Below are positions 1 through 52,828 of a stretch of DNA of 64,000 nt, piece after piece. A program made the position numbers and the translations under genes. Source of the DNA: Nitrospirota bacterium (GTDB lineage: Bacteria > Nitrospirota > UBA9217); the NCBI GenBank assembly GCA_963840455.1, contig CAWIYV010000010.1:382785-446784 (forward strand). Reading direction: 5' to 3'. Under the pieces are notes generated by a model. That model searched no databases. It saw nothing but the letters and a program-made list of their open reading frames with translations, and was not told where the DNA came from. Each line of letters begins with the position of its first letter. Position 1 is the stretch's first letter.

Positions 1-255
1 ATACTCCTTGACGCGCGCGGCATTCGGTGTGATGGTGGCGCATTTTACCCCCACGCCGTACTGCTTGATCGCCTCCGCGGCTTCGACCGTGATCCGGTCG
101 TCGGTCTCGTCGCGGTGCTTCATGCCAAGGTCGAAATATTTGAGGTTGACCGTGAGATGGGGCAGGATCAGCTTCTCCTTGATCATCTGCCACATGATCC
201 GGGTCATCTCGTCGCCGTCCATCTCGACGATGGGGTTCTTTACCGTTATGGCCAC
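1..255 (-). CDS. icd: NADP-dependent isocitrate dehydrogenase, N-terminal ~85 aa only (gene runs off the left edge)
   Basis: Minus-strand translation from GTG at 255 (AAGGAG 9 nt upstream) gives [34 protein letters not shown]...[17 protein letters not shown], the conserved N-terminus of dimeric NADP-IDH. Absent from the ORF track because it has no in-window end. Confidence 0.8.
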
Positions 256-293
256 TGGTCCGTTCTCCTTCGGAATGATCCCGTCATGATCCC

Positions 294-716
294 TTACGCG
301 CAGAGCTCGAGGGTGCTGAAGAAATACGCGATCTCGAACGCCGCGGTCTCCGGCGCATCGGAGCCGTGGACCGAGTTTGCCTCCATGCTCTGGGCGAACT
401 CCTTCCGGATCGTGCCGGGCTCGGCATTGGCAGGGTTCGTGGCGCCCATGAGCTTGCGCCACGCCGCTATGGCGTTCTCTTTCTGAAGCACCAGGACGAT
501 GCAGGGTCCGGACGACATGAAGTCCGTGAGGCTGCTGAAAAAGGGCTTCCCCCGATGCACGGCGTAGAATCCCTCGGCCTGCTTTTTGGTCATCCGCAGC
601 CTCTTCATGGCAATGACCTGAAAACCGTTCTCCTCGATCTTCGCGAGGACCTTTCCGGTAATACTCCTGCTGCATGCATCAGGCTTGATGATGGCAAAGG
701 TCTTTTCCGTGGGCAT
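294..716 (-). CDS. ndk: nucleoside diphosphate kinase
   Basis: 140 aa with the canonical NDK sequence (FAIIKPDA..., [34 protein letters not shown]). TAA stop at 296..294. Confidence 0.92.
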
Positions 717-919
717 GGCACTCCCTCCGGCAGGCTTCGGTAATGAACATGAGAACTGATTTTAAAGCGCGTGGGATGAATTGTCAACAGAACAGTGAAG
801 CTCCCTGCAGCGAGCTGCGGGGAGTGCCCTCGCTCCTGGATTCTCTGCGGACCGGGGGGCATGCTTCGCCGGGGAAAACGGTTGCGGAAGATGGCCGGCC
901 ATCAATTGGGTCTGTTCAG

Positions 920-1600
920 CTATCGCTTTTTCAGGAAGACCACTATCGCGCCGCTGCCACCCTTGTCGCGGGGCGCGGCATGGAACTCGGCGACCAGGCC
1001 TTTGCCCTGCTCCCGGAGCCATGCATTAACCGCCCCGGGAAGGACCGGCCCATCTGGCGAGTTGATCCCTTTTCCCGTGATCACGAGGACCGCCTGCAAA
1101 CCACGAGCACAGGCGCCAGCGATGAAGTGCTCGAGCCGCCGGAGCGCCTCGTCCTTCAGAAATCCGTGAAGGTCCAGCTCCTCGCTTATGCGTATGGTGC
1201 CGCGCTTGAGCTGGCGCATCCTGCTGGACGAAGAGCGCGCGGGCGCCTCGTCTTCCGGTTCCGGTGCTCCGTCACGGTACACCGCGGCCCCGATCATGCC
1301 CACCGCTTGAAGAAAAAGAGCCCGCCCGTGTGCTTCGTCATCGACACGCTTTTCTGCAGCCATTGGAGACGTCTGCGGTCCCGGCTCCTGGTCACCGTCC
1401 GCCGCGATCCTCGTAGCGCCTCCCACGGACCGCAGGAAAAGACCTTCATCGTCCTCATGATCCTCGTGCGAAGAGGCCTTTTGTGTCGTTGCCTGCAGCG
1501 GCGGGGTCTTCCCGATGACGCCTTTCAGCGCCTTGAAAGGGCTGTTCTGAAAAGCACCGGCACCTCGCTGATGCTTGCTGTCCTTGCGTTTCCTGGTCAT
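920..1600 (-). CDS. Smr-domain protein (SmrB/YdaL-like endonuclease family)
   Basis: C-terminal Smr domain (LDLHGF...LVITGKG...AVNAWLREQ) and the N-terminal DEGLFLRSVGG motif typical of SmrB-like proteins. Confidence 0.7.
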   Translation of the reverse strand: MTRKRKDSKHQRGAGAFQNSPFKALKGVIGKTPPLQATTQKASSHEDHEDDEGLFLRSVGGATRIAADGDQEPGPQTSPMAAEKRVDDEAHGRALFLQAVGMIGAAVYRDGAPEPEDEAPARSSSSRMRQLKRGTIRISEELDLHGFLKDEALRRLEHFIAGACARGLQAVLVITGKGINSPDGPVLPGAVNAWLREQGKGLVAEFHAAPRDKGGSGAIVVFLKKR

Positions 1601-1674
1601 GAGAATGCGAAGAATGTTCGTGCGCCGGATCGCAGGCGAAACCTCTCGTGGGGCAGAGCGCCGATCCGTTGAGG

Positions 1675-2904
1675 TTAATGGTCGGGATAGCGTTCAGCGA
1701 TGTTGCGGATCGTGTCGATACAGGCAAAGAACGTCTCGACCATCTCGGGATCGAAATGCGTGCCGGAACTGACCTTGAGCTCTTCGAGGACCTGTGCCTC
1801 TTCCCACCGCTCTTTATACGCACGCTTGGAGCTCAGGGCGTCATAGACATCAGCCAGGGCGACAAGCCTGCCGAACACCGGGATCTCATCGCCCTTTTTG
1901 GGCCTCGGTGAACCATCGCTGTTCTCATAGCCCGGCAGCACCTTGGCGTCGAAGGGATTGATATGGCCGGGGTACCCCGTGCCGTCCCATTTCTCGTGGT
2001 GGTTCAGTGCGACCACGGCTGACGCGTCGTCGAACTCAGAATACTGCTCGGAAAAGAGCCGTGCACCCATAATGGTGTGCTGCTTCATGATCTCGCGCTC
2101 CGCGTCGTCGAGTCGCGCCGGCTTCTTGAGGATCGCATCCGAGATTGCCACCTTGCCCACATCGTGGAGCATGGCAGCCATTCGCAGGATGTCGCGGTTC
2201 TTTTCGAGGACATCATGGGGCACGCTGCGTTTGCCCGCCCAGTGCTCGTAGAGAGCCACGGAATAGGATGCCACACGGTTGACATGGGCTCCGGTCTCCT
2301 TGGGGTCCCGCAGCTCCGCCATCTTGATGGTCCGGAGGATCATGGCACGCGTCATCTGGGCGCGCTCGATGGCGACCGCGGCCATGTTGGCGAAATGCAT
2401 GACGAGGGGCTCATCCTTCTTCGAGAACGGCACCACCGCGCCCTTTGCATTCTTTTCGTTGATGAGCTGCAGAACGCCGACCGTGTCGCCACGGTTCGTC
2501 TTGAGCGGGAACGTCAGCATGGACTGGGTGCGATAGCCGGAGAGATCGTCGAACTTGCGGTTGAACGAGAACGGAAGCGTCGAGGGGAGCTTATAGACAT
2601 CCGTAAGGTTCAGCATCTCACCGGTGTTGGCCACATAACCCGCGATGGTCTGATTGTTGATCGGAAGGGTAAAGGTGGAGTAGATCAGCTTTTTCCCGGG
2701 CAGACGCTGCTGGAACGTGTCGTTCTGGGTATAGGTGAACTTCAGTTTGTCGTCTTCCTTCACATAGATGGTGCCGGCGTCGGCGTTCACCAGGCTCCGC
2801 GCTTCCTTCAGGATTCGCTCGAGCAGCACGTCCAGGTCCTTCACCTGGGTGATCTCGATGCCAAGGTTCACGATTTTCGCGAATTTCTGTTTTTCTGTGA
2901 GCAT
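1675..2904 (-). CDS. GAF domain / HD-GYP domain c-di-GMP phosphodiesterase
   Basis: 409 aa with an N-terminal GAF-like region and a C-terminal HD domain carrying the HHEKWDGTGYP (HD-GYP) signature. ATG at 2904. Confidence 0.85.
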   Translation of the reverse strand: MLTEKQKFAKIVNLGIEITQVKDLDVLLERILKEARSLVNADAGTIYVKEDDKLKFTYTQNDTFQQRLPGKKLIYSTFTLPINNQTIAGYVANTGEMLNLTDVYKLPSTLPFSFNRKFDDLSGYRTQSMLTFPLKTNRGDTVGVLQLINEKNAKGAVVPFSKKDEPLVMHFANMAAVAIERAQMTRAMILRTIKMAELRDPKETGAHVNRVASYSVALYEHWAGKRSVPHDVLEKNRDILRMAAMLHDVGKVAISDAILKKPARLDDAEREIMKQHTIMGARLFSEQYSEFDDASAVVALNHHEKWDGTGYPGHINPFDAKVLPGYENSDGSPRPKKGDEIPVFGRLVALADVYDALSSKRAYKERWEEAQVLEELKVSSGTHFDPEMVETFFACIDTIRNIAERYPDH

Positions 2905-2972
2905 GTCGGCTATCTTACATCCCGAAAGAGCGGCTTGTCAATTCAAGGATGGCCAGAAAATCCTTTTCTTAA

Positions 2973-3001
2973 TTGACTCACTACACCTTTTTTGTTATAG
3001 T
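2973..3001 (+). promoter_or_regulatory. sigma70-like promoter upstream of the dksA-like gene
   Basis: TTGACT (2973-2978), a 17-nt spacer, then TATAGT (2996-3001). Followed by a leader hairpin gcgaacgg...ccgttcgc. Confidence 0.4.
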
Positions 3002-3075
3002 ATACCATTCAGCAGCGAACGGTGCGGTCATTCCGTTCGCCTTTTCATTATTACCCGGGAGCAGAGGTCGTTCGC

Positions 3076-3438
3076 ATGAACATGAAGATCAACGCCATTC
3101 GGAAGAAGCTCATGAAACAGCGCGAGGAGCTTTTGTCCGAGGCAGAGCAAACCATCAACTCCAAGCTGGGCGCGGATAAGCAGAGCTTTCCTGACCCCAC
3201 GGACCAGGCCGCGGCGGAACTGGACAACAATTTCATGCTCAGGCTCCGCGGCCGGGAGCAGAAGCTCCTGAAGAAGATCGACGAGGCCATTGCCCGCATC
3301 GACGAGGGATCATATGGCATATGCGAGTCCTGCGGCGGCCAGATCGGTTTCAAGCGGCTTGAGGCCCGGCCGGTCACGACGCTCTGCATCGAGTGCAAGA
3401 CCGAACAGGAAGAGAACGAGAAGCGCCAGGTGGGGTAA
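3076..3438 (+). CDS. dksA: DksA/TraR-family C4-type zinc-finger transcription factor
   Basis: Coiled-coil region plus CESCGGQIGFKRLEARPVTTLCIEC zinc finger. ATG at 3076 (alternative 3082). The track ORF 3022..3438 starts from an upstream non-ATG codon. Confidence 0.8.
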   Translation: MNMKINAIRKKLMKQREELLSEAEQTINSKLGADKQSFPDPTDQAAAELDNNFMLRLRGREQKLLKKIDEAIARIDEGSYGICESCGGQIGFKRLEARPVTTLCIECKTEQEENEKRQVG

Positions 3439-3576
3439 GAGCGGGACAGGTTCCGGTTGAATCCAGGAGCGAGCGCATTCCCTGCAGCTTGCCGCAGGAT
3501 TCGTGAGCGATTAGAATAAACATACTGCACTGAGGATCGAAGACTCCCTGCAGCTTGCTGAAGGGAGCTTCAACAT

Positions 3577-3609
3577 GGCTGACCGTCATTGGTCGGCCTT
3601 TTGTTTTTG
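3577..3609 (+). terminator. rho-independent terminator after the dksA-like gene
   Basis: Stem ggctgacc/ggtcggcc (one mismatch) followed by ttttgtttttg. Confidence 0.5.
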
Positions 3610-3657
3610 TGGTGGACGGCAGGGTCCAGCTCCCTGGCCGCTGCCGTGTACCGACCC

Positions 3658-5517
3658 TCAGAGCATCAGCCCCTCGGCGATCTCGGAGTTGACCTGATGG
3701 ATCCATTGCACGATCCGGTGATGCACATTTTCCTGCATGTCCTCGAAACACAATCCGACATAATAGGCCGCATCCTGCTTCCTGGCGTGGTAGACCGTTG
3801 CGCGTATCGTGATGTTCTCCAGTTCAAGCAGGCTGAAGTTCACATTCACCTTTGAACCGATCCCGACCGGGGAACCGACCACCAGAAGGCATCCTGTTGG
3901 GCTGATGTTCTTCACCATGGCCGTGAACGCTTCATCGGGAAAACCTGCGAGCGAGTAGACTGCCGGGGCATCCGTCGCCTTCCGCATATACTGACGCGCG
4001 CCGCCCTTTACGCTTACGACTTCCGCGATGCCGATAGGCTGGTCCTTCCCTTTTACCATCACCGGATGCAGGTCCTTCAACGACGCCTGGTCGCCGATCG
4101 CCTCGGCAATTGCCCTGCTTACCAGGACCATGCCCGGCTGCGCGATCCCGCACATTCTCGCCGCGATGTTGATGTTATCGCCGATCACGGTATAGTCCAT
4201 ATGGTCTTCCGAGCCCATATTGCCCATGACGACCTCGCCGTTGTTCAGGCCGATCCCGATGCTGATCACCTTTTCCCCCGCAGCTGACCGCGCAGCATTC
4301 AAGGCCTTGCAGTAGCTCTGGATCTCCACGGCGGCCCGTACTGCGTTGATCTCGTTGCCCCGCCCCTCAAAGATGGCCATCACCTCATCGCCCACAAACT
4401 TATCGATCGTGCCGCCGAACTGATGGATAACCTTCGCCTGCAGGTTCAGATAGACGTTCATCAGCCTGACCACGTCCTCAGGGCTCATCTTCTCGGAAAG
4501 CGAGGTGAAGCCGCGCGCATCAGAAAAGAGGGCGGTCACGTACTTCCTCTCCCCTCCCAGCTTCAACTGCGTCATATCGCGATGCTCCTTGATGCTCTGG
4601 ACCGTGGGCTGGGACAGGTACTTCTCCATGAGGAGCTTTTCCCGAAGGCTCAGGATCATCTGGTTGAAGACATTGGTGAGCTTGCCGATCTCGTCGCTCG
4701 AGCTTACGGGGACCAGCCTGCGCAGGTCGCCGCGCGCAACGACCTGGATGCCTGCCGCGAGTGAATCAAGCGGTTTCGTGATAAGGCGGGCGAGCGCAAA
4801 TGAGATCAGCAGTCCGCCGACAACGAATCCCAGGGCCATCCCGAGGTAAACGCTCTGCTGCCTGCGGATGGCCTTGTTCAGCGCTTTCTGAGAGATCCCG
4901 ATGCGCGCCACGCCGATCTTGAGATTCTTCGTCTTCAGCATGATGGGGATTGTGGTGTCCAGGACAGGGTCGTTCCCGGCAATGGTCTCCTGGAATAGCA
5001 AGCCGTTGGCGTGTAGTGCCGCCAGGTCCGCCGAGCCGGCAAGGAGCGCCCCTTTCTTGGTCAGGTCGCTGTGCGCGAAGACCTCCCCCTTATCGTCCAT
5101 GACCATGGCATAGACAACGTCCTCACGCTGCCGGATGTCCGTGATGGTGGAATAGACCGGCAACTCCTGTTTCGTAAGCAGACCTTCTTTCCCGACGTTC
5201 GCAAGCTGGTTGACCAGCGTTTCCGCGCGGCTTTTCATTTCTTGGCGCAGGATGGCGTTCTGCTGGGTGAAGGTCACCACGCCGAGGGAGATAACGGCGA
5301 GGCTCAGGATCACGATGAGCGTTCCGGCGATCTTGTACCGGACGCTGATCGAGAAAAGAAACTGGAGAAGGCGAGAAGGCGTTTCTGGGTTCTCAGCCTC
5401 CTGCGTCGCCACGGACAGGGCGGCAGCGCTCATCTGCTCCAGCTTCGGCTGTTCCTCCATCGTGGGTTCAGCAGCAATGCTGGCCGCCTCCTTGTTATAT
5501 TCCGGTTCATTGCTCAT
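3658..5517 (-). CDS. membrane-bound class III adenylate/guanylate cyclase with HAMP linker and C-terminal PilZ domain
   Basis: 619 aa. TM segment, periplasmic sensor region, a second TM and HAMP, then the CYCc catalytic core (YVTALFSDARGFTSL...FVGDEVMAIFEG). The C-terminal ~110 aa carries the PilZ signatures RQYMR (RxxxR) and NISPTG (NxSxxG). ATG at 5517 overlaps the upstream gene stop (ATGA). Confidence 0.8.
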   Translation of the reverse strand: MSNEPEYNKEAASIAAEPTMEEQPKLEQMSAAALSVATQEAENPETPSRLLQFLFSISVRYKIAGTLIVILSLAVISLGVVTFTQQNAILRQEMKSRAETLVNQLANVGKEGLLTKQELPVYSTITDIRQREDVVYAMVMDDKGEVFAHSDLTKKGALLAGSADLAALHANGLLFQETIAGNDPVLDTTIPIMLKTKNLKIGVARIGISQKALNKAIRRQQSVYLGMALGFVVGGLLISFALARLITKPLDSLAAGIQVVARGDLRRLVPVSSSDEIGKLTNVFNQMILSLREKLLMEKYLSQPTVQSIKEHRDMTQLKLGGERKYVTALFSDARGFTSLSEKMSPEDVVRLMNVYLNLQAKVIHQFGGTIDKFVGDEVMAIFEGRGNEINAVRAAVEIQSYCKALNAARSAAGEKVISIGIGLNNGEVVMGNMGSEDHMDYTVIGDNINIAARMCGIAQPGMVLVSRAIAEAIGDQASLKDLHPVMVKGKDQPIGIAEVVSVKGGARQYMRKATDAPAVYSLAGFPDEAFTAMVKNISPTGCLLVVGSPVGIGSKVNVNFSLLELENITIRATVYHARKQDAAYYVGLCFEDMQENVHHRIVQWIHQVNSEIAEGLML

Positions 5518-5846
5518 TTAGTTTCGATTTCCTCGAGGGTCTTCAGTATGCGTTCGATCTTCTTCAGATTCTCCTGCGCCTTCACCCCGAGGGTGGTTTT
5601 CGGCCCGAGCGCAAGGGCCTGCTCGAACGCCTCCTTGGCCTCTCCGTAATTCTCCCGGGAGTACTGCTGGACACCGAGGTCGTAATACTGCTTCTGGGCC
5701 TTGGCATCAGCATGCTGGCGGGCCGGCGACCTCGAAGGTGCAGTTGGAGGCGGGGGGGGCGTTTTTTTGAACAACGCGCATCCGGACAGAACGAGCAGCA
5801 TCATGCTGCAGATGAACAATTGTACCAGTGAACTTCGGGTCTTCAT
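5514..5846 (-). CDS. lipoprotein with proline-rich linker and TPR-like helical domain
   Basis: Signal peptide with lipobox LSGC, a PPPPPTAPS linker and a TPR-like C-terminus. The stop overlaps the cyclase start by 4 nt (translational coupling). Start taken at the internal ATG at 5846; the track ORF extends to 5942. Confidence 0.6.
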   Translation of the reverse strand: MKTRSSLVQLFICSMMLLVLSGCALFKKTPPPPPTAPSRSPARQHADAKAQKQYYDLGVQQYSRENYGEAKEAFEQALALGPKTTLGVKAQENLKKIERILKTLEEIETK

Positions 5847-6020
5847 GAACTTGTCTGGTGTCAACCTCGTAAGCTCCTTCGCTGTCAATCCCGAGACCGA
5901 TGCCGCCCTCCGGGTCGGTACCGCGCGCTGTTTTCCGTTCATAGCGATATAAATATATCACAAAAATACCGTGATGGGCAAAAAAAGTGGGTTAGCGATG
6001 GTCTGCTAACCCTTTGATTA

Positions 6021-6067
6021 CATGGTGGGCGCTGCAGGGTTTGAACCTGCGACCCCTGCCGTGTGAA
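6021..6067 (-). repeat. truncated 3' copy of tRNA-Val(CAC) (attR-like direct repeat)
   Basis: Exact 47-nt match to the 3' end (CCA end, T-arm, 3' half of the anticodon arm) of the tRNA at 11531..11605. Sequence diverges immediately beyond. Confidence 0.8.
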
Positions 6068-6343
6068 TGACCTGCTGTATGAGAAACACGTTTTCCTTAC
6101 AATGGAAAATAGTGGAAATCTAATCGCTTTGATCTATTCAAAGGAGGGAACATCTCTCCCATTTTTTTCCTATTTCTTCTGTCTACTATACAATTACTAT
6201 ACAGTCCCTCAAAAAAAATGCTTTCCGCCATGCAGAGTGGAACAGCCCCCTCCCCTCTGGTCGACGAAGACTTGGTTAAGCATGCTACCTGGGATGATCT
6301 GCATGAAAACATACGGGACAGGATTTTTCGGAATAGGTTCGTT

Positions 6344-7387
6344 CTAACGATGTTGGTGGTAAATTTCTTCGAAAATAAAGCCAGAAATCTCTGCGATGGT
6401 AGTATCCAGATACTCGGGTATGGGACCTGAGGTCATCACACACAAAAGGTAGGGATGACCCGGATAATAAACAATTCCGCAATCATGCAGCTGTTTTATC
6501 CCTTTTATCTTCCGCAAACCGAACTTATGCGCGACTGCGATATTGGGAGGCACTCCGGCAACTAAACCTTTTTTGTAATCAGTTTTTGTGAGATATTTTA
6601 AAGCCTTTTCGGACATTTCTCTACTTAGGTATGAGGCATTGAAAAGAACGCGGAAGAAAGACGAATATAATTCTGCTGAGAGCACATAACCACTTTCGTC
6701 ATTTAAATAATAAGGGTCGGGAATGCCCAAGTCATCATATGCCTTTCTGAGGTCAATCTTACTAATTGCTTCTTCAAGGAGTAGAGAGGAAACATTATCA
6801 GAATAATCAATCATTCTTATCAGCAAGTCTTCAACTGTGTAAGACCTGCCAAACAACAATTTATCAGCTACATCGGTATTTTGGATTGATTTAAGGTCAG
6901 GATTTTTATAGGCAATTCTTTTAGTCAGTATCTGGGGGTCCGTTTCTGCCTTTTTCAAGACGGAGATCATTTCAGGCACCTTCAGTAAGCTTGCCGGATA
7001 GAATTGTGTATCTTTCCCTATGTTGAAAGCATGTCCGTCGTTGAGTTCACGATAATATACCGAGATCTCATCGCCCCATCTCTTTTTTACGTTTTCTCTT
7101 ATAAATTTTTCAACATGATCTCTCATCGGTTTGAGTTCAGGGTCCGACAGCAGATTTGTAGCTTGCTCGCATTCCAACAAAGGATTTATATAGTTCCAGC
7201 CTCTCTGTCGGATCTCGATGACTTGAGGCTTTGATTTTTCCGGGATGAAACCTCTAAGCATGAACCCGACGGAAAATCCGGCAAGAAGGGTCAGGGCCAG
7301 CGTCAGATATTTACGAAATGGACTTTTGGATTCGAAATTACTGTTCATACCATTATTAAGACTGTCAATCAACTTTTTTGAGGCCAT
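6344..7387 (-). CDS. membrane-anchored serine hydrolase, class A beta-lactamase-like
   Basis: 347 aa with an N-terminal TM anchor, an SxxK motif (ASLLK), an SDN motif (YSDNVSS) and a KTG-like motif (HKFG). Low-GC gene inside the island. Confidence 0.65.
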   Translation of the reverse strand: MASKKLIDSLNNGMNSNFESKSPFRKYLTLALTLLAGFSVGFMLRGFIPEKSKPQVIEIRQRGWNYINPLLECEQATNLLSDPELKPMRDHVEKFIRENVKKRWGDEISVYYRELNDGHAFNIGKDTQFYPASLLKVPEMISVLKKAETDPQILTKRIAYKNPDLKSIQNTDVADKLLFGRSYTVEDLLIRMIDYSDNVSSLLLEEAISKIDLRKAYDDLGIPDPYYLNDESGYVLSAELYSSFFRVLFNASYLSREMSEKALKYLTKTDYKKGLVAGVPPNIAVAHKFGLRKIKGIKQLHDCGIVYYPGHPYLLCVMTSGPIPEYLDTTIAEISGFIFEEIYHQHR

Positions 7388-7771
7388 CAGGAGAAGGTTG
7401 TCATGGCGGCAAATGACTTTTGCTGCCTTATTAACCTATCCGAAAGCACATGTCAAGCTCAATCATTTAAGCAGGGTTGATCTTCCCTGATTATTCATTG
7501 GTAGAAAACCGCTTCGTGGTGCACTGCATGCACTCTTCTCTCCGGCTTCTACCCCGGCCACTGTGATTGCCGGTCTATTTCTTCATAAATAAGCGTAGTG
7601 ACATCACGAATGATGTTCGTTATTTTCCCGGAATCTTCCCCCAGGGCAGTTCGTCAGTACTATGTGATCACCTGAAAAGGCGATTCAACGACGAGCACAA
7701 GCCTGCCGCATTGCTGGCCGGCATGAGCCTAGCATTGCAGAAGCTATGCTGAGAAGAGAAAGCGTCCGAGG

Positions 7772-10700
7772 TCAGTGCGGCTCCCCGCGCGGGAAGTAAG
7801 TTCCATACCCTGCCAGCTCCCGCGAGAGGCGGGTCACTAAGAGTTGCACTGTTATAGACTGTGCATTCTTAGCGGGCAGAAGAGGGCCGTATTTTCTCCA
7901 TAGAAGACCAGCTTCTTGTATGTTGCCTACCGCCAAATCTCCCAACATTCCTGCAGATAATGTATATTCTAGGAGATCGGCATCTACTGCATTCTGCTCC
8001 ATCTGCACCAATATTTTTTTCGAATATTGGGCCATGCCTGCAGCGTCTTTTTTCCCCACGGCCTTGATGAGTTCAATGAAGTCGCGCTGTGAATCGGAAA
8101 GGGATTTTGAACATGATGAAGTTTCGATGCTCTTCAAAATCCGCGAAAGCTGTTCCGGCGACCAGCAGGGAACGAAGTCAGCGACAACATGAAGCATCGC
8201 CATCCACCATTCTTGCCTCAAAGAATCCTCTGAACATTTTCTGGTGAGCGCCTGTTTGGCATTCATAACGAGCTGTCGGCTCTGGTCCCGCAGCGGCGCA
8301 TACGGATGGCTCCATTTCATTTGATCATTCATAAAATACTGAAAGATCATGTTAGCAAAATGGATCCTAATTGATTTTGGAAAAGTGGAATACGCCACCG
8401 GAGAGATGCTGACATCTGAATGCTTCTTTCCGAGCATGTGCATGATCGGCAGTCGACCAAACTCGATACTGTGAAACTGTGGAGAGGCCGTTAGATCGTA
8501 AAAACGGCTTTTTACAGCATAGAGATCTACGATCGGTTCGTAGTCCGAATTGGCCGCCGTGCCGTAGCTTTCAAAAAGAGGCGAGAGCATCGATTTATTC
8601 CCAAGGACACGGACATTGATATCCGGCAGGCCCATGACATCGACCTTATTCAGTTCATTCATGAGTGACTCAATGGCCAAGAATGAAATTTTCGGTTCCT
8701 GGACATCTCCTACAGGACACGCTACAATGAGCATGTCGTAAGGATTTGTCGCGTAGATGATATAATCGGAGAAATAAGGCGCAAGAGCCTTCATGATAGA
8801 AGCAACTAGCGACATGTCAATGTCGTAGAGGTGGATCCACTGAACGAACAAGCCGTCTTTGGTAAGATATTCGCGTACCCGAGAGTAAAATTCCTTCGTA
8901 AAAAGGCTTGCAACACCGCTGACCCAGGGATTGGAAGGCTCAGAGATGATAAGATCGTATTGTTTGTTCGTGAATGAAAAATATGACTTCGCATCTTCGA
9001 TCCGCACATGACTGCGAGGATCGTCATATGCGAGCCTGACACGTGGACCGAAAAGCCTTGCAGCCTTGATCATTTCCGGCTCTATCTCTATTGTATCAAC
9101 ACTGTTGATATTCGGAACCGTCAGCAGGGTGTGGGTTGTCAATCCTGAGCCCCATCCGATGATGGCTGCTGTCCTGGCTTCGGGTCGATGAATGATACCG
9201 ATAGCGCCTGCCAATACCATGGTTTCTTCATCCTTTGAATGTCCCCTGCCGGTTATTTGCAGGCCCGCATCGGATTTCCCATTGGTTTTGATCGACATGT
9301 TCTGCAGGTCCTTGGTTATTGATACCGTGGCTGTTTTACCATCGCGGTGATAAAGGACCTCTTCTTTAGTCTGATCGGGCAAAATTCCAAATCGATAGAC
9401 CCCCGACGCCATTTTGCCGGGGTCGAGCTTCAACCAGAACATCGGGAGCACAAGAGCGACGACGCCCGCGATTGTATATACGGCGGGGATACGCCAGGAG
9501 GGGAACGCCCACCATGCCAGACCGAGTCCAAGAGCGATGTCTATGCCTGCTCCAAGAATGATCATGCCTTTGAGACCCAGCAAAGGCATCGCCAGATGGA
9601 CAGCCATAAAGACGCCGAGGATCGATCCTATGGTATTGAATCCATAGACCGCGCCAATGCTCCGTTCGCCCGATCCGCTTCGGAGAAGTCCATTCGTAAT
9701 AAGGGGAAGCGTCATGCCTGCACAAAAAGCGGCAGGCAGCATGATGACGAGTGCGATGCCGTTACTGGTGAGATTAAAGAGAAAGTATCCTGCATTGGTT
9801 TTTGGTAAATTCCTGATCAGCCATGCCATCGCGCTGAAAGTGCCGCCATAAATGGGAAGGGTCGCCAGGGCCAGAATCCCCATGGCGACCTGTACCAAGG
9901 CCAAAAACCGGCGCGGATCATCGAATGAATCAATTCGTCGTTTGATCCAGAGGCCGCCGAGCGCAATGCCCGTGATGAAGGCGCTCAACATGAGCTCAAA
10001 GGCATGGGTAGACGCGCCCAGAACGAGACTCAGCATTCTGATCCAGCCGATCTCATAGATGAACGAGGACAGTCCCGTAAGCAGAGCGATCAAGAGGAAG
10101 ACTTTATAAACGAGACCTCGCGAAGTGCCGGGAACATCGGTTTTCGTTTGAATAGATGCTGAGACCTGAACAGATGAACTCCTTTTGTCTTCAATCCAGA
10201 CAATAGCAGCCACCATGATGTTGATGCAGCCGGCAAGGACAAGCGTGCCCGGCAGGCCGACCCATCCAATGAACAGAAAACCGGCCGCCAGAACGCCGAT
10301 TGCGGCGCCTATGCTGTTCGTAAAATAGAGCATGGCCACAAGAGAACCAGAAGATTGTGGAAATCTCCGTATAAGCCCTGCGGTCATGAGCGGGAAGGTC
10401 ATTCCCAGCAGAATGGACTGCGGCAGGATCAACAGACTGGCAGCGGTCCACTTAAAAACGGCCACTGCCGTAGGCGAGCTTAACGCGGGAATGAACTTCG
10501 CGTACGTTAGCTCGATAAAGTGGACATAAAGTGGATGGAAAAAAATCGCGCAGACACCGATGACCGTTTCAACAACTGCATATCCGATCAACAGATTGGG
10601 GAGCCGCTCGGAATATTTCGAACAGATCAAGGCTCCTGATGCCATACCCCCCATGAACACAGCGAGAACGAGAGCTTGAGCGTATGCCGCGTGCCCTAAG

Positions 10701-10816
10701 AAAAGTTTTAAATAGTGTGTCCAGATGGATTCATATATAAGGCCGGCAAAACCTGAAGCGGTAAACATAAGGAAAAAAAGACGAAGACTTATATTGTTCA
10801 TGAGGTTTTTCTCCAC
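7772..10816 (-). CDS. fused MFS-type membrane domain / spermidine-synthase-like (aminopropyltransferase) protein
   Basis: 1014 aa. About 480 aa of a polytopic MFS-like membrane domain, then a PABS/spermidine-synthase-like domain (IIGWGSGLTTHTLL, IEIEPEMIKAARLF, DLIISEPSNPWVSGVASLFTKEFY), then a long C-terminal extension. Confidence 0.8.
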   Translation of the reverse strand: MEKNLMNNISLRLFFLMFTASGFAGLIYESIWTHYLKLFLGHAAYAQALVLAVFMGGMASGALICSKYSERLPNLLIGYAVVETVIGVCAIFFHPLYVHFIELTYAKFIPALSSPTAVAVFKWTAASLLILPQSILLGMTFPLMTAGLIRRFPQSSGSLVAMLYFTNSIGAAIGVLAAGFLFIGWVGLPGTLVLAGCINIMVAAIVWIEDKRSSSVQVSASIQTKTDVPGTSRGLVYKVFLLIALLTGLSSFIYEIGWIRMLSLVLGASTHAFELMLSAFITGIALGGLWIKRRIDSFDDPRRFLALVQVAMGILALATLPIYGGTFSAMAWLIRNLPKTNAGYFLFNLTSNGIALVIMLPAAFCAGMTLPLITNGLLRSGSGERSIGAVYGFNTIGSILGVFMAVHLAMPLLGLKGMIILGAGIDIALGLGLAWWAFPSWRIPAVYTIAGVVALVLPMFWLKLDPGKMASGVYRFGILPDQTKEEVLYHRDGKTATVSITKDLQNMSIKTNGKSDAGLQITGRGHSKDEETMVLAGAIGIIHRPEARTAAIIGWGSGLTTHTLLTVPNINSVDTIEIEPEMIKAARLFGPRVRLAYDDPRSHVRIEDAKSYFSFTNKQYDLIISEPSNPWVSGVASLFTKEFYSRVREYLTKDGLFVQWIHLYDIDMSLVASIMKALAPYFSDYIIYATNPYDMLIVACPVGDVQEPKISFLAIESLMNELNKVDVMGLPDINVRVLGNKSMLSPLFESYGTAANSDYEPIVDLYAVKSRFYDLTASPQFHSIEFGRLPIMHMLGKKHSDVSISPVAYSTFPKSIRIHFANMIFQYFMNDQMKWSHPYAPLRDQSRQLVMNAKQALTRKCSEDSLRQEWWMAMLHVVADFVPCWSPEQLSRILKSIETSSCSKSLSDSQRDFIELIKAVGKKDAAGMAQYSKKILVQMEQNAVDADLLEYTLSAGMLGDLAVGNIQEAGLLWRKYGPLLPAKNAQSITVQLLVTRLSRELAGYGTYFPRGEPH

Positions 10817-10873
10817 TGATACTTATTTTTTCTCATCTCAAACGATTCATTACATGAAATAGTAGTAATGACA

Positions 10874-10898
10874 CTCCCCCGGCAGGAGCCGGGGGTTT
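10874..10898 (+). repeat. 25-nt hairpin repeat (copy 1): ctcccccggcaggagccgggggttt
   Basis: Exact 25-mer also found at 50057..50081. Stem cccccggc/gccggggg with loop agga, followed by T residues. Confidence 0.7.
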
Positions 10899-10904
10899 CT
10901 TAAA

Positions 10905-11311
10905 TTACAACGTCAATTGCTGTTGCCCTTTGTCTTCCTTTTCCTGATAGGAAACATAAGCGAGAATTTCCTTTTCGTTCAGCCCGATACACCATACACA
11001 ATATGCTCGCGACCAGATGCCTTCTTTGCTTGCGTATGTTTTGTGATAAAAAGGAAATTTCGCCTTAAGCTTTTTCGCCGATTGTGACTTGATGTACTGT
11101 ACGACGTCGGCAACTGCAATTTTCCGCGGAACAACGATTACCATGTGTACATGGTCTATCCGCACACTGAGCTTGATTACCTCGATATCGGGATCAAGAT
11201 CTGGGAGATAACCAAGCGTCTTGGCCGCATACTCCTTGACACCCTTTACGAAGATCTTCCGCCGATATCTCGATATCCAGACGAGATGCTACTCTTTTTT
11301 GTAAATGCCAT
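10905..11311 (-). pseudogene. tnpA: IS200/IS605-family Y1 (HUH) transposase TnpA, apparently frameshifted near the N-terminus
   Basis: The frame from 11283 reads HLVWISRYRRKIFVKGVKEYAAKTLGYLPDLDPDIEVIKLSVRIDHVHMVIVVPRKIAV...SRAYCVWCIGLNEKEILAYVSYQE (HUH HVHM and catalytic Y region). The ATG at 11311 (MAFTKKSS) is in another frame. An in-frame TAG precedes HLVW. The shift sits at a T6 run (11295-11300). No tnpB present. Confidence 0.65.
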
Positions 11312-11530
11312 GGGCACTCTTTCGATATCTCATGCCCCATCATATCAAATACCATCTCGTCTGGATAGCCGCTAAATCACCAGACAGGGGTTTGGTATTT
11401 TATGCGGCTCAATAAAGGTTGAAGCTTGCATTACACCCGTCCCCAAACTGCACACCGCCCACCAATCGCACAATTACTGCACAAGAAACAGAAAAGGAGT
11501 CAGCATTTTCTGCTAACTCCTTGTAATTCA

Positions 11531-11605
11531 TGGTGGGCGCTGCAGGGTTTGAACCTGCGACCCCTGCCGTGTGAAGGCAGTGCTCTCCCGCTGAGCTAAG
11601 CGCCC
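11531..11605 (-). tRNA. tRNA-Val (anticodon CAC)
   Basis: Cloverleaf confirmed by hand: acceptor GGGCGCU/AGCGCCC, D-arm GCUC/GAGC, anticodon stem CUGCC/GGCAG with loop UUCACAC, T-arm GCAGG-UUCAAAC-CCUGC. CCA is encoded. Confidence 0.9.
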
Positions 11606-11761
11606 GGAAACGGTGATTATCTTACCCAGAGGGTACCTGTTAGTCAAGCGAAAACTTGGTTCTTATGGTCTACAAAGCCCGTGACGGACAGAGCTAGCAA
11701 GGAATGATCCGCCGTTATCCCCCCTGTCGATTTGATCCGTGTCAAATGCCGTTTTAAGAAA

Positions 11762-12925
11762 TTATTCCACGCTCAGAATCGCGCACTTCAGGTACTGCGA
11801 CTCCTTTGCGGCGAGCAGCATGGGGTGATCGCGGGACTGCGAGCGCATCTCCAGGAGCCGCGCCTGCCTCCCCGCTGACCAGGCCGCGTCGATCAGCATC
11901 TCCCGGAACAGCTCCTGGTCGATGTGGTGCGAGCAGGAGCAGGTGACGAGGAACCCGCCCGGTTCGAGCAGGCGCATGCCGCGCAGGTTGATCTCCTTGT
12001 ATCCCTTCAGTGCCTCGCGCACCTTCGCCCTGCTCTTGACAAAGGCAGGAGGGTCCAGGACGAGGCACCCGAACCGCTCCTTCTGCTTCTCGAGCTCCCG
12101 CAGCTTCTCGAACACGTCGCCGACCGCAAATTTCGCGGGCAGGTTGTTCAGCTCCGCGTTCGACCGTGCAAGCGTCACGGCCTTCTCCGACGAGTCGATG
12201 CCGATGACCTCTGTCGCGCCGTACCGGGCGGCGGATAGCGCCCATGCGCCCACATAGCAGAAACAGTCCAGCGTCCGCCGGCCCCGTACCAGGTCCTTGA
12301 GCGCCAGACGGTTCTCGCGCTGGTCGAAAAAGAAGCCCGTCTTCTGGCCCTCAAGCACGTCGGCCCGGTAGCGGATACCTGATTCCTCGAACTCCACCAT
12401 GCCCGATGTTTCCCCGAGAACGACCCGCGTCTCCTGTCCCAGTCCCTCGAGCGCCCGCGAGGCAGTGTCGTTCCTGAGCACGATGGTCTTCGGGCTGTAG
12501 ACCTCGCGGAGAGCGGCAAGGACCAAGTCCAACATGCCGTCGACCCCCGCGGTGAGCGACTGGACCACAAGCGTGTCTGCGTACTTGTCCACGATGAGGC
12601 CGGGAAGTCCGTCGCCCTCGCTGAACACCGCGCGGAAGGACTCGCCGAAACCGAGGTCCTTCCGCAGGTCGCGTGCTCTGCCGATCCTCCTCGTGAAGAA
12701 AGCGGCGTCCATATCCTCCTGCTTCCTGGTCAGGATGCGTACCGCGATGAGAGAGCGGGGATTCACGTATCCCCGCCCAAGGAAGTTCCCGGTAAAATCC
12801 CGGACCTCGACAGGCTCACCGGGCACGGCATCAGCGGGCAGGTCCTGGACCTCGTTGCTGAACACCCACGGATGGCCGCGCTGGACACGGCGTTCTTCTT
12901 TCTTTTTGAGCTTGATGGTTCTCAT
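11762..12925 (-). CDS. rlmI: 23S rRNA (cytosine-C5) methyltransferase RlmI family (PUA + class I SAM MTase)
   Basis: 387 aa. N-terminal PUA-like region, SAM-binding GIDSSEKA...LVLDPPAF and a C-terminal region typical of RlmI/RlmK family. Confidence 0.75.
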   Translation of the reverse strand: MRTIKLKKKEERRVQRGHPWVFSNEVQDLPADAVPGEPVEVRDFTGNFLGRGYVNPRSLIAVRILTRKQEDMDAAFFTRRIGRARDLRKDLGFGESFRAVFSEGDGLPGLIVDKYADTLVVQSLTAGVDGMLDLVLAALREVYSPKTIVLRNDTASRALEGLGQETRVVLGETSGMVEFEESGIRYRADVLEGQKTGFFFDQRENRLALKDLVRGRRTLDCFCYVGAWALSAARYGATEVIGIDSSEKAVTLARSNAELNNLPAKFAVGDVFEKLRELEKQKERFGCLVLDPPAFVKSRAKVREALKGYKEINLRGMRLLEPGGFLVTCSCSHHIDQELFREMLIDAAWSAGRQARLLEMRSQSRDHPMLLAAKESQYLKCAILSVE

Positions 12926-48046: not shown

Positions 48047-49182
48047 TCACATCAGCCCGTCGATAGCCTCAAAGAGCCTTTCAATATCGGATTCGATGTT
48101 GTAAAAATGCGGTGACACACGCAAACCCCCGCCCCGGACGTTGACCATGATCCCCTTCTCCCGAAGTCCGATTCTGACCGCCTCCTGATCGAAATGCCCC
48201 CTAAACGTTACGTTGCCTCCTCGTTCGCGGCGCTCCCTCGGCGTCAGAATTTCGAATCCCCTTTTGTCCGCTTCTTCGATTATCTCATCGCCTAGATCGA
48301 GCACGTGCTGTTCGATATCCCTATGCTGGCTTCCAGGAGCAGCTCTACTGCCGCCCCGAGGCCGAAGACCCCCATCAGGTTCATGGATCCCTCCTCGAAT
48401 CGCTGTGCATCTCGCTTCAGTACGAGGTGCGGCTGATCGAAATCGAACTCGTTCTGAACGCTCTTCCAGCCGATAAGCGATGGGGCAATGCGTTCGGTTA
48501 GCTCCTTTCTGCAGTAGAAGATCCCGATCCCTTCGGGGCCGAGAAGCCATTTGTGCGCATCTGCAGAAAGAAAATCCACGTTACACGCCTGCACATCCAT
48601 CGGGATCATGCCCAGGCTCTGAATGGCATCAACACAGAGCAGAATGTTCCTATCGCGGCACAGACCGCCCAGCCGCTTCAAATCGATCCTGAACCCGTTG
48701 GAGAACTGGACCGAGCTGACTGTTACCATACGCGTCCGGCTGTCCATGAGCCTCTCAATGTCTTCGATCTGAACCCTCCCGTTCCTGAAAGGAACCGGTC
48801 TCGCTTCGACACCTTTTCTTTTGAGGTTCTGCCACGGAAATATATTTGAGGGGAATTCCCGTTCATAGAACAAAATGTTCTCCCCGGCTTTCCAATCAAT
48901 ACCCTCCGCAACAAGGGAAAGTCCATGCGAAGTGTTCTTAACAAAGGCGATTTCATCTGCTTCTGCGTGAATGAGACGGGCGCAGCTTGTTCTGACCTCA
49001 TTGACCCTGTGTGCCCACGCGGGATAATGGAACGCCCCGCCTTCTGATGATTCCCGAAGAAAAACCTCGACGGCAGACTTCACGCGCACGGAGGCCGGCG
49101 CAACGCCCGCGTGGTCGAGGTAGATATAGTTCTCCACCACAGGAAATTCCCGTCGGTATTTTTCTATCGTTTTATCGTCCAT
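48047..49182 (-). pseudogene. class V aminotransferase / cysteine-desulfurase-like PLP enzyme, split by a frameshift near 48320-48340
   Basis: Frame A (49182..48292) encodes the N-terminal four-fifths, including the AHKW pyridoxal-lysine region. Frame B from about 48316 continues with the conserved C-terminus (IEQHVLDLGDEII...RVSPHFYN). A single-base indel in ...agcatagggatatcgaacag... would restore one ORF. Confidence 0.6.
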
Positions 49183-49442
49183 GGCTTTCGTATATACACC
49201 TCTTTATCCGCGCGCGACAGCCTCTTGATCGCATGCTCCTTCTTCAGCGCATCCGACCTCCCCCTGCACGTTTCATGGTGCACCATCCTGACCGGCAGTC
49301 TGCTTCTCGTATATTTCGATGCGGTCCCGTTCCGGTGCCTCTCGAGACGCCTCGGCAAATCCACGGTTATCCCGGTATACAGCGTCCTGTCGCCGCACTT
49401 TAGTATGTACAGGCTCCACTTCTTTTTTATCGTTTTCGGCAC
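49164..49442 (-). CDS. GIY-YIG nuclease-family protein (UPF0213/YhbQ-like)
   Basis: WSLYILKCGDRTLYTGITVDLPRRLERH...ALKKEHAIK. Probable GTG start at 49442. The track ORF start at 49499 is a TTG. Confidence 0.55.
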   Translation of the reverse strand: MPKTIKKKWSLYILKCGDRTLYTGITVDLPRRLERHRNGTASKYTRSRLPVRMVHHETCRGRSDALKKEHAIKRLSRADKEVYIRKPWTIKR

Positions 49443-49520
49443 GCGGAAATTGTAATGAAACTGCCCTGTAATAGCAAGATGATTGTAGACAGTACCCAAG
49501 AAAGACGTTATTATTTCGGC

Positions 49521-49955
49521 ATGAAAAAAGGCATTGACTACATCGGTGTCGGAACCGGCGCGATTATTTTCAATAAGGACGGAGCCCTCTTTCTAGCGAA
49601 ACGCGGAAAAGAAGCGCGGAACGAGAAGCACAAATGGGAGTTCCCCGGTGGCAGCGTCGAGTTCGGTGAGACCTTGGAAAATGCCCTCGTGCGGGAAGTG
49701 CGGGAGGAATTCGGGTTCGTGATCAAGGTGATTCAGCTTCTTGATGTGGTGAACCACATCCTACCCAAGGAAAAGCAGCACTGGGTCTCCCCGACCTATC
49801 TATGCAGTTACATGAGCGGCGAGCCCTGCATCCTGGAACCACACAAATGCGAAGAGATCGGCTGGTTCAGCCTTGACAAGATTCCGGTGAACGATTTGAC
49901 CATGGCCTCTCAAAAAAGCCTGGGTAGTCTGAAGAAATATCTTTCTGCTAACTGA
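49521..49955 (+). CDS. NUDIX hydrolase
   Basis: Nudix box GGSVEFGETLENALVREVREEFG. ATG at 49521. Confidence 0.8.
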   Translation: MKKGIDYIGVGTGAIIFNKDGALFLAKRGKEARNEKHKWEFPGGSVEFGETLENALVREVREEFGFVIKVIQLLDVVNHILPKEKQHWVSPTYLCSYMSGEPCILEPHKCEEIGWFSLDKIPVNDLTMASQKSLGSLKKYLSAN

Positions 49956-50056
49956 TCCGTAGCATTTATGTGATTATGCATGAACCATTATCGTTCTTTT
50001 CCCGCCGATGTCTGTGCTCCTGAAATTCGGTGTTCTGCTGGCTTCTGAAACGACCC

Positions 50057-50081
50057 TCCCCCGGCAGGAGCCGGGGGTTTT
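50057..50081 (+). repeat. 25-nt hairpin repeat (copy 2), terminator-like, downstream of the NUDIX gene
   Basis: ctcccccggcaggagccgggggttt, identical to 10874..10898 and followed by ttct. Confidence 0.7.
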
Positions 50082-50186
50082 CTGCGGCTCAATAATCTTG
50101 GAGAAAATTATACGGGGTAAGATGATGTAGTCGTTCATGTTGTCACCACAACAACCACAACGGTCGACATGTCCGATCAAAAACAC

Positions 50187-50762
50187 TCATCGCTTACCGC
50201 CGGTGATCCACCAGTCACCTTTATCACTGAACCACCATAACGATGAATCTGTTTCTAGGATGGTCCTCGCGAGCTCTTTCGCGCTTTCGGTCTGGAGCCT
50301 CTTCATCGAGAAACCAAGCCATTCGTCAGCATACTTGTTCCCGAGATCCTTGTACTCCTTGAGTGCGAGGATCATTTCCAGCTGGTCTGCATCCTTTGCC
50401 AATCGTGCTTCTTCGGTCATTCCCTCCTCATATTCACTGATCAGTCCCTGGATCTCGTTGCCGAATGGAAGCGTCTCTACAAGGTCCTTAACAGCCTTTT
50501 TTTCATCCGCAGTGACATATTTCTTGTTAACATAATTAAGATCACCAGTCCTCGCTTCCGGCAGGTCATGGAAAAGACACATCTTGATCAACCTGTCAAC
50601 ATTGATCCCCGTTGCCGATTGTCCGAGTGCATATCCAATATATGTCGTTCTGAAAATGTGTTCTGCGACCGATTCTGCTCCGGTCCCGAGGAATTGAAAA
50701 CCGCTTCGTGGCGTGCGCTTCAGCATGCCTGCTTCGAACAAAAAGTTTGCGATATTTTTCAT
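50187..50762 (-). CDS. HD-domain phosphohydrolase (YfbR-like 5'-deoxynucleotidase family)
   Basis: HD motif (AEHIFRT...LFHDLPEARTGD). Confidence 0.72.
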   Translation of the reverse strand: MKNIANFLFEAGMLKRTPRSGFQFLGTGAESVAEHIFRTTYIGYALGQSATGINVDRLIKMCLFHDLPEARTGDLNYVNKKYVTADEKKAVKDLVETLPFGNEIQGLISEYEEGMTEEARLAKDADQLEMILALKEYKDLGNKYADEWLGFSMKRLQTESAKELARTILETDSSLWWFSDKGDWWITGGKR

Positions 50763-50858
50763 GGGATCTCTTTGTGGTATTATCGCAATAGCGATTCAGC
50801 TGGCATCCGGTGCTTTCTTCCGGGTTGTCCTGCTGATCAGTACCCGCGTGACCTGTGC

Positions 50859-51894: not shown

Positions 51895-51905
51895 TTTACG
51901 TCCCC

Positions 51906-52815: not shown

Positions 52816-52828
52816 GGTGATAAGCCCC

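Follow-up and report, generated by a model that had tools for sequence, protein, structure and literature searches.

A decayed genomic island resembling a cis-mobilisable element at the tRNA-Val(CAC) gene of an uncultured Nitrospirota bacterium

Introduction

The window analysed here is a stretch of 64,000 nucleotides of a Nitrospirota bacterium (GTDB lineage Bacteria; Nitrospirota; UBA9217), corresponding to positions 382,785 to 446,784 of the forward strand of contig CAWIYV010000010.1 in GenBank assembly GCA_963840455.1; all positions below are counted from its first letter. The subject is an island of 5,461 bp (6068-11528) that adjoins a gene for tRNA-Val(CAC) and is bounded by a 47-bp direct repeat. 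It currently contains a gene for a serine hydrolase related to beta-lactamases (the bla-like gene), a gene for a protein of the major facilitator superfamily (MFS) fused to a spermidine-synthase-like (SpdSyn) domain, and a transposase pseudogene (tnpA) of the IS200 type, with no typical backbone gene of the element family to which its ends belong. The locus is very probably the relic of a small tyrosine-integrase element in the 3' end of the tRNA gene, the interior of which has been swapped for foreign pieces. It is best described as a decayed tRNA-associated genomic island similar to a cis-mobilisable element (CIME), which is a known kind of locus, well supported here and not surprising. The island had been pointed out by a model that saw only the nucleotide sequence and its open reading frames (the sequence-only reading), and its main claims are taken up below with the results that bear on them.

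Exact-sequence look-ups with three proteins of the window gave no match. Relatives of the locus were collected as homology-anchored loci, comprising 80 genome loci anchored on RlmI and 80 metagenome loci anchored on the integrase; all relatives are metagenome-assembled genomes (MAGs). Individual loci are given by their L numbers. The genes flanking the island encode an RlmI-type methyltransferase, SurA, a TPR lipoprotein and a Cache-HAMP-cyclase-PilZ protein, and their sequences place the host in an uncultured Nitrospirota lineage.

Integration site and composition

The features that define the integration site are as follows.

5980-6012, minus strand: native tRNA-Val terminator, a hairpin GGGTTAGC...GCTAACCC with a T-run, read from the sequence and contiguous with the tRNA in L001
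6021-6067, minus strand: distal attachment (att) core, identical over 47 nt to the 3' end of tRNA-Val and representing the original 3' end, now displaced
11529-11575, minus strand: proximal att core, within the functional tRNA gene
11531-11605, minus strand: intact tRNA-Val(CAC) that served as integration target, with 100% identity to its counterpart at the empty site of L001

The intact tRNA-Val(CAC) was called by ARAGORN and, in agreement, gave 68 bits with the Rfam tRNA model; a scan of 5-13 kb with Rfam found nothing besides it. The 47-mer CATGGTGGGCGCTGCAGGGTTTGAACCTGCGACCCCTGCCGTGTGAA is present in exactly two copies in the 64-kb window, at 6021-6067 and 11529-11575. It spans tRNA positions 31-75, that is, 45 nt of the 3' end with the encoded CCA included, and a further 2 nt outside the tRNA. 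A 32-nt sub-pattern of the repeat, sought with up to 3 mismatches, was recovered at the same two sites only and matched in none of 100 shuffles (0/100). A third att copy or a tandem array was sought in the 64-kb window and none was found. The intact tRNA and the exact second copy of its 3' end, both noted by the sequence-only reading, are thus confirmed.

The native terminator of tRNA-Val now lies 5.5 kb away from its tRNA owing to the insertion. In a three-way alignment of the junctions, island DNA comes after the intact tRNA, and beyond the distal partial copy lie the native terminator and the native flank; this is the geometry of the attL and attR sites produced by integration into a tRNA 3' end.

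The island has a GC content of 0.470, compared with 0.583 in the left flank and 0.579 in the right flank. In a 500-nt profile the GC content ranges from 0.39 to 0.54 within the island and from 0.58 to 0.64 outside it, with a sharp step at each border. The tetranucleotide L1 distance between the island and the rest of the window is 0.409, the largest in the window, against a mean of 0.174 (sd 0.058) for other 5-kb windows; the sole further outlier is the dnaA origin region at 49-55 kb. The AT-richer stretch claimed beforehand is therefore real by both measures (GC 0.47 against 0.58; L1 0.409 against 0.174).

Empty site and occupied sister strains

The closest genome available, L001 (JAAXXJ010000002), with about 93% nucleotide identity, has an uninterrupted tRNA-Val site. 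Window positions 19316-11509 align with L001 positions 1-7805 (93.4% identity) and window positions 6067-919 with L001 positions 7739-12892 (90.7% identity), and the two alignments overlap in the core region only. The order in L001 is tRNA-Val (100% identical), directly followed by the terminator, the TPR gene and the cyclase gene. The site is also empty in L002, where tRNA-Val is directly followed by the TPR and cyclase genes. In the three closest genomes these two genes can be made out downstream of the site; the third of these genomes, L003, holds only a relic of about 1.1 kb. An empty site in relatives had been named in advance as the test of an integration that left attL and attR, and L001 and L002 provide it; the integrase remnant and the arm motifs described below point the same way.

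The same comparison might be read with the opposite polarity. The segment would then be ancestral, and L001 and L002 would have lost it by homologous recombination between the 47-bp repeats, the apparent empty site being a deletion scar. Such recombination would recreate exactly the empty site that is observed, and the polarity of the event rests on few genomes. Even so, the marks of an insertion remain, namely the foreign composition, the integrase remnant with its arms, and a cargo related to the chromosomes of other genomes. A homologue of either cargo gene was found by tblastn at 0 of the 80 RlmI-anchored genome loci, the three closest genomes are either empty (L001, L002) or reduced to the relic (L003), and the occupied strains (about 97.5% identity) appear nested in a clade of about 93% identity that includes the empty L001. 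An ancestral segment is therefore very unlikely, and insertion into an originally uninterrupted tRNA-Val gene is retained.

Three metagenome contigs from separate assemblies (L081, L085, L086), drawn from the samples JGI 3300033557, ENA ERZ27267272 and ENA ERZ27267026, carry the same island, colinear over both junctions, at 97-98.6% identity. L086 covers the right flank through the bla-like gene, and L085 covers the MFS gene through the cyclase gene of the left flank. A chimeric join at the repeated tRNA sequence, arising during assembly or binning, would suit an uncultured lineage in which all relatives are MAGs, and tRNA repeats can mis-join contigs. Both junctions are, however, reproduced in the independent assemblies L086 and L085, and the flanks are syntenic with L001; an artefact of this kind can be given next to no credence, and the island is treated here as a genuine insertion.

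The distal core shows 46/47 identity in both L085 and L086, a drift that is as expected for a non-functional copy. Overall divergence is alike in the island and the flanks, so the insertion is older than the split of the four occupied strains and younger than the split from L001. The island has been vertically inherited since its insertion.

Integrase remnant and parent element family

The following features link the island to an element family.

11431-11526, plus strand: 3' remnant of a tyrosine integrase gene (int), 31 codons and TAA (proximal arm), from tblastn and DNA matches
11260-19053 of L027, 2986-10038 of L091 and 261-7465 of L093: complete elements at tRNA-Val(CAC)
11295-19134 of L029 (two tandem relics), 10996-12158 of L003 and 10126-11148 of L017 (about 1 kb each): relics at tRNA-Val(CAC)

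Within the island, only the stretch adjoining the tRNA (11435-11528) resembles the RlmI-anchored loci of relatives at the DNA level. The translation of 11431-11526 on the plus strand ends with ...TITAQETEKESAFSANSL* and corresponds to the final 28-31 residues of the integrase, matching in tblastn the L010 integrase at 71% over 28 aa (E 1.4e-6) and the L027 integrase at 58% over 31 aa. The DNA of the remnant matches the equivalent position in L010, L018, L027, L029, L033, L056 and L091-L094. In L027 and L010 a gene for a tyrosine integrase (PF00589), of 395 aa and 376 aa, respectively, ends in this equivalent DNA, with stop codons 2-15 nt from the tRNA 3' end. By tblastn, neither the rest of the integrase gene nor any other integrase-like sequence was found in the island or elsewhere in the 64-kb window. 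The statement in the sequence-only reading that no integrase remains was right with respect to an intact gene in the window, and had missed the 31-codon remnant at 11431-11526.

Intact PF00589 integrases (376-395 aa) with the 3' end of the gene adjoining tRNA-Val are present in L010, L027 and L091-L094. When metagenomes were scanned with the L010 and L027 integrases many relatives were obtained, the closest of which again adjoin tRNA-Val (L091-L094), with RlmI alongside in L092-L094. The complete elements in L027, L091 and L093 are about 6.9-7.8 kb long, and at their borders tRNA positions 28/30-75 recur as direct repeats of 46-48 nt. In L003, L017 and L029, relics are recognisable by partial tRNA copies, and truncated integrase ends resembling that of the window occur in L018, L056, L033, L019, L029 and L012. 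The presence of family integrases and relics at the same tRNA-Val gene in many relatives marks tRNA-Val(CAC) as an integration hotspot for one integrase family in this Nitrospirota clade.

Intact members of the family consist of int and variable, mostly unannotated genes, among them a primase-helicase and a terS-like HTH protein in L027. PHROGs annotates only int, the primase and the terS-like protein, in one member, and Pfam annotates nearly nothing in L091 and L093. No relaxase or type IV secretion system was seen in the intact members. IMG/VR contained no close relative of the parent elements, only integrases at ≤29% identity, and an affiliation of these elements with phage satellites is a low-probability lead only.

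The 3' end of the integrase gene contains a hairpin GGAGTTAGCAGAAAATGCTGACTCC with a T-rich run (11480-11528, minus strand) that resembles the native terminator GGGTTAGCAGACCATCGCTAACCC with its T-run (5980-6020, minus strand). This hairpin stands in for the terminator behind the regenerated tRNA, which could account for the persistence of integrase 3' ends in many relics.

Element arms and candidate arm sites

Both ends of the island retain DNA of the parent family.

6068-6258, strand not assigned: distal-arm relic, with homology to the distal arms of L091, L093, L027 and L029b (alignment)
6185-6192 and 6196-6203, direct: distal motif pair ACTATACA, candidate arm-type integrase sites
11447-11454 and 11476-11483: proximal motifs ACTGCACA, within the integrase remnant

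The DNA just inside the distal core shows a diverged but recognisable homology to the corresponding DNA of L091, L093, L027 and L029b. In each of these a direct pair of the motif ACTNNACA lies at +163/+175 from the distal core, and the window has its pair at +165/+176. The family has 2-3 more copies of ACTNNACA within the integrase 3' end, at -160/-142/-131 from the tRNA 5' end, of which the window has those at -160/-131. The motif has 4 occurrences in the whole island, all of them at family-conserved offsets on the two arms. By their position and arrangement, the ACTNNACA motifs are candidate arm-type integrase-binding sites. Of the arms, about 190 bp survive on the distal side and about 98 bp, the last 31 int codons, on the proximal side. 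From the island ends, the predicted attP junction is ...CAGCAGGTCAT + core + GAATTACAAGGAGTTAGCAG..., and the predicted attB is a sequence of the L001 type, with the tRNA followed by the native terminator.

Elements differ in the form of the motif: the distal pair of the window has ACTATACA, L093 and L029b have ACTGCACA, and L027 and L091 have ACTTCACA. Within a pair, the two copies never differ. These variants look like co-variation with the integrase and not like random decay.

Captured segments

The region between the arms contains two captured segments, with a gene fragment at the end of the first.

6259-7647, minus strand: captured segment A, with the gene for a PBP-A-like serine hydrolase at 6344-7387 (PF13354, 3e-32)
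7549-7647, minus strand: fragment of a paralogous bla-like gene, the last 32 codons (7552-7647) and stop (tblastn with the upstream paralogue of L171: 81% over 32 aa, E 2e-15)
7772-10816, minus strand: captured segment B, fused MFS/spermidine-synthase-like gene (NF037959, PF01564; homologous DNA 7824-10864)

Segment A is 86% identical in nucleotide sequence over 6259-7647 to the chromosomal loci L171 and L172. The layout of these loci is a PPDK gene followed by two tandem bla-like paralogues. The window holds the second paralogue intact and, upstream of it, a remnant of the first, and this 32-codon scar indicates that segment A was cut from a chromosomal bla-like tandem.

The bla-like protein has 347 aa, an N-terminal hydrophobic membrane anchor and a Beta-lactamase2 domain. 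The motifs S133-x-x-K136, S196-D-N and H287-K-x-G290 do not vary among 22 family members, the third taking the form HK[F/T]G. The KTG position is occupied by K288-F-G in the window protein, Glu166 aligns to Tyr, and the NCBIfam model bla_class_A (NF033103) gives 63 bits against a cut-off of 200. Identity as a class A beta-lactamase was rejected for these three reasons, the protein being a relative in fold only. Its motifs suggest a penicillin-binding envelope enzyme similar to a DD-peptidase as the most likely identity, rather than a beta-lactamase. As the deacylation base is absent and the class A model failed, the gene has no bearing on antibiotic resistance. The best match among solved structures is PBP-A (Tll2115) of Thermosynechococcus (PDB 2J9O), which likewise has SxxK, SDN and K-x-G motifs and no general base equivalent to Glu166. 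The similarity is low (E 1e-6), and the window protein differs in its membrane anchor, an extension of about 80 aa, and KFG in place of KTG.

The product of the fused gene in segment B has 1014 aa, or 1009 aa if translation starts at an alternative ATG at 10801. It scores 85.7 bits with NF037959 (cut-off 40) and 2.8e-18 with PF01564, and weakly with MFS_1. The segment is 82% identical in nucleotide sequence to L082 and 76% to L173 and L083. Like the membrane-bound or fused MFS spermidine synthases (NF037959; PRK03612-type), the protein joins a PF01564 Rossmann domain to MFS-like transmembrane repeats in one chain. It differs from them in its length of about 1000 aa, which includes an extra conserved C-terminal domain of about 320 aa, and in the hallmark motifs of PF01564: IGWGSG replaces GGGDG, which discriminates decarboxylated S-adenosylmethionine, and SEPSNP replaces the catalytic D-x-x-D/E-P. 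The altered motifs IGWGSG and SEPSNPWVSG, together with much of the extra C-terminal domain, are invariant throughout a set of 25 homologues whose identity goes as low as 47%. With this protein, every SpeE equivalog model stays far under its cut-off, and canonical aminopropyl transfer or spermidine synthesis by it is doubtful. Comparison with the sister strains gave a dN/dS of 0.13-0.17, by which the gene is under purifying selection. A search of the literature on the fused MFS/spermidine synthase family returned nothing relevant.

One Nitrospirota MAG (L083/L084, 1-13018) has three MFS/SpdSyn-like paralogues interspersed among genes for multihaem cytochromes and for a GT2 glycosyltransferase. 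This neighbourhood is a possible lead to the function of the family.

Linkage and origin of the cargo

The genes themselves are as the sequence-only reading described them, according to searches with hidden Markov models: a 347-aa Beta-lactamase2 protein with an anchor, a 1014-aa NF037959 protein and an IS200-type Y1 transposase. Its view of the cargo as unusual does not stand, since both families are large and common in Nitrospirota chromosomes. The cargo genes of the island were absent from 80 of 80 RlmI-anchored genome loci and from 80 of 80 metagenome integrase loci; a single weak match in L097 was rejected as an unrelated SpdSyn-like domain.

Neighbourhoods were read for four close homologues of the bla-like gene, including P0131 (L087), P0142 (L088-L090) and P0125 (L171-L172), and for three close homologues of the MFS/SpdSyn gene, namely L082, P0008 (L083-L084) and L173, the last lying between gltX and pdxA. 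No partner gene was found in these 4 + 3 neighbourhoods, and none of the homologues is located at a tRNA-Val. This result bears on the suggestion, which goes back to the sequence-only reading, that the serine hydrolase and the MFS/SpdSyn protein are a co-evolved functional module, serving polyamine-linked envelope chemistry or resistance and spread by the island. The two genes are adjacent, co-directional and intact in all four occupied strains, both products are predicted membrane or envelope proteins, and the MFS gene is under purifying selection. Besides never having a partner nearby, however, the genes lie on separately captured segments that differ in GC content (0.41 against 0.50; tnpA has 0.445) and in nearest relatives, with the fragment of another neighbour on the bla-like segment between them, and 384 bp separate the two. 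A functional module is for these reasons quite unlikely. On present evidence, the two genes came to lie side by side in the island by accident, and the cargo is mosaic in origin.

IS200-type element

The remaining part of the interior is an insertion sequence (IS).

10865-11430, minus strand: IS200-type element with approximate ends (PF01797), the ends being placed where homology to L082 and to integrase genes stops

The tnpA gene runs from 11333 to 10905 on the minus strand and has 142 codons when its frame is reconstructed; PF01797 gives 52.8 bits on an 86-aa open reading frame. In the window it is a pseudogene with an in-frame TAG at 11289-11291, codon 15. The same codon is TAC in L081 and L086, where tnpA is intact (142 aa), and by this comparison the inactivation in the window strain is recent. 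A dN/dS of 0.5-0.8 suggests relaxed constraint. The earlier identification of an IS200-type tnpA was correct as to the Y1 transposase gene (PF01797) and had overlooked its interruption at codon 15.

A GC hairpin downstream of tnpA (10876-10895) has a z-score of -4.3; the outermost stretch of the left end, with z -1.2, is not significant, and the element ends lack a second copy for reference. A 17-bp stem encloses the tnpA start codon (11260-11380, minus strand; DNA fold z -4.9), and the TAG lies within its 3' arm. The GC-rich hairpin CTCCCCCGGCAGGAGCCGGGGGTTT at 10867-10898 recurs at 50049-50080 near the replication origin with 30/32 identical positions; it may belong to the right end of the IS, represent a REP-like element or serve as a terminator common to both places.

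The element resembles the IS200 group of the IS200/IS605 family in that one small Y1 (HUH) transposase gene, 142 codons long, stands without tnpB and in that the stem around the tnpA start is like the one that blocks translation in IS200; the hairpins downstream of tnpA and around its start are candidates for the end hairpins of the group. It differs in the nonsense codon that inactivates tnpA and in its length of about 566 bp between approximate ends, which is shorter than the roughly 700 bp of the classic IS200. The element sits precisely at the truncation point of int. With the int remnant, this position agrees with the earlier description of the island as decayed or IS-remodelled.

Proposed history and alternative explanations

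Integration took place at the tRNA-Val 3' end over a core of about 47 bp, both arms come from one element family, the interior has been replaced and int has been lost. The events behind this state may have been as follows. A small integrative element would have entered the 3' end of tRNA-Val(CAC) through recombination by its tyrosine integrase over the core, regenerating an intact tRNA and pushing the original 3' end to the far side. The element would have acquired its cargo in other hosts during its mobile phase, from chromosomes of Nitrospirota with a lower GC content, and integration in the ancestor of the window strain would fall after the split from the L001 lineage. A deletion linked to the IS200-type element would then have removed most of int ahead of the divergence of the four sampled strains. 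Vertical inheritance would have followed, with the MFS gene under purifying selection and tnpA and the distal att copy drifting. On its own the island is immobile. A related integrase acting in trans could in principle excise it, as in a CIME, and such excision is conceivable because both cores and both sets of candidate arm sites have been kept.

Several points weigh against this history. When the window is compared with L085/L086, synonymous divergence amounts to 0.07-0.087 for the MFS gene, 0.027 for the flanking cyclase gene and 0.004-0.009 for the bla-like gene. The value for the MFS gene is thus about 3× that of the cyclase gene and about 10× that of the bla-like gene (Fisher p = 9e-4 and 6e-6), an excess that is unaccounted for by simple vertical inheritance; the data hint at allelic recombination within the island as one possibility. 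The arm motifs are backed by conserved position alone, and the distal ACTATACA differs from the proximal ACTGCACA, so that one integrase perhaps no longer binds both. The ends of the IS200-type element were derived from homology break-points, and its role in the deletion of int is an inference only. Finally, all four occupied strains already lack int, and a loss of int before arrival, with mobilisation in trans, could also give this state.

The last point leads to a different account, in which int was lost in an earlier host and the island arrived as an integrase-less CIME that was recombined into the tRNA gene by a related integrase in trans. In keeping with it, the att cores and the candidate arm sites are kept at both ends, and int is absent from all sampled occupied strains. 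Related elements or relics lie at the same tRNA-Val (L003, L017, L027 and the tandem relics of L029), and their presence at this hotspot implies that helpers of matching specificity circulate in the clade. The CIME concept itself is documented (PMC5704250). The account is nevertheless met by the lack of a helper integrase within the 64-kb window and by arm motifs that differ in sequence between the distal and the proximal side. No identical island, such as repeated mobilisation would leave behind, turned up in another host background, the three extra copies having the same flanks, and a transfer vehicle would be required besides the integrase. Arrival without an integrase is considered possible but somewhat unlikely, and entry of an integrase-bearing element followed by loss of int in this lineage is the explanation preferred here.

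A more far-reaching proposal, speculative and rather improbable, concerns the integrase family at tRNA-Val(CAC) as a whole. The family would be an undescribed group of small integrative elements, about 7-8 kb long where both att sites are visible and possibly phage-satellite-like, with arms (the core and the paired ACTNNACA) that act as a portable cassette; the island in the window would be a cargo-swapped derivative without integrase that is still moved in trans by resident members of the family, so that ordinary chromosomal genes would be shuttled between Nitrospirota.

Comparison with known mobile elements

With the tRNA islands of tyrosine recombinases (P4-like, integrative mobilisable elements) the locus shares insertion into a tRNA 3' end, a regenerated tRNA, flanking direct repeats, an atypical composition, an empty site in close relatives, and int beside the tRNA in intact members. 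It differs from them in that 31 int codons are left and there is no excisionase, replication, transfer or regulatory gene. It is also very small, at 5.5 kb, and its host belongs to an uncultured Nitrospirota lineage. To our knowledge, such elements have not been described in this lineage.

CIMEs were defined for the relics of streptococcal integrative and conjugative elements (ICEs) as well as integrative mobilisable elements (IMEs) (PMC5704250), and they form a category in ICEberg 2.0 (PMC6323972). The island has the two definitional features, in that it keeps attL and attR and is without integration and transfer genes, and in relatives it has the corresponding hotspot with related elements and tandem relics. 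It differs in that the parent is not a demonstrated ICE or IME, with no conjugation or relaxase genes seen in the intact family members; mobilisation of the island itself, in cis or in trans, is hypothetical. A further difference is that the interior has not merely decayed and has been replaced by foreign chromosomal genes and an IS.

Other features of the window

The replication-origin region extends from 49000 to 58600 and includes the following genes.

53476-54810, plus strand: dnaA
54898-56013, plus strand: dnaN
56149-58584, plus strand: gyrB

AT-rich gaps occur in this region at about 51000-51500 (GC 0.37) and at 53000-53475 (GC 0.41), and the GC skew turns from negative to positive; dnaA lies about 42 kb from the island. 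The compositional outlier at 49-55 kb was considered as a second island and rejected, the region being the dnaA-dnaN-gyrB origin. Two tRNA-Ser genes are located near the right end of the window.

63514-63599: tRNA-Ser, tga anticodon
63718-63807: tRNA-Ser, gct anticodon

Significance

Current concepts of integrative elements are unchanged by the island. The main value of the analysis is a correct annotation of the locus as horizontally acquired DNA whose boundaries are exact, whose empty site is documented and whose pieces can each be traced to an origin. Two large, uncharacterised families of envelope proteins with non-canonical, invariant active-site motifs emerge as a by-product, as do the tRNA-Val(CAC) hotspot and an integrase family with conserved candidate arm sites. 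For the biology of mobile DNA in these bacteria, the locus is a clean case of an integrative element that has been hollowed out and refilled with chromosomal genes while its att arms have been kept.

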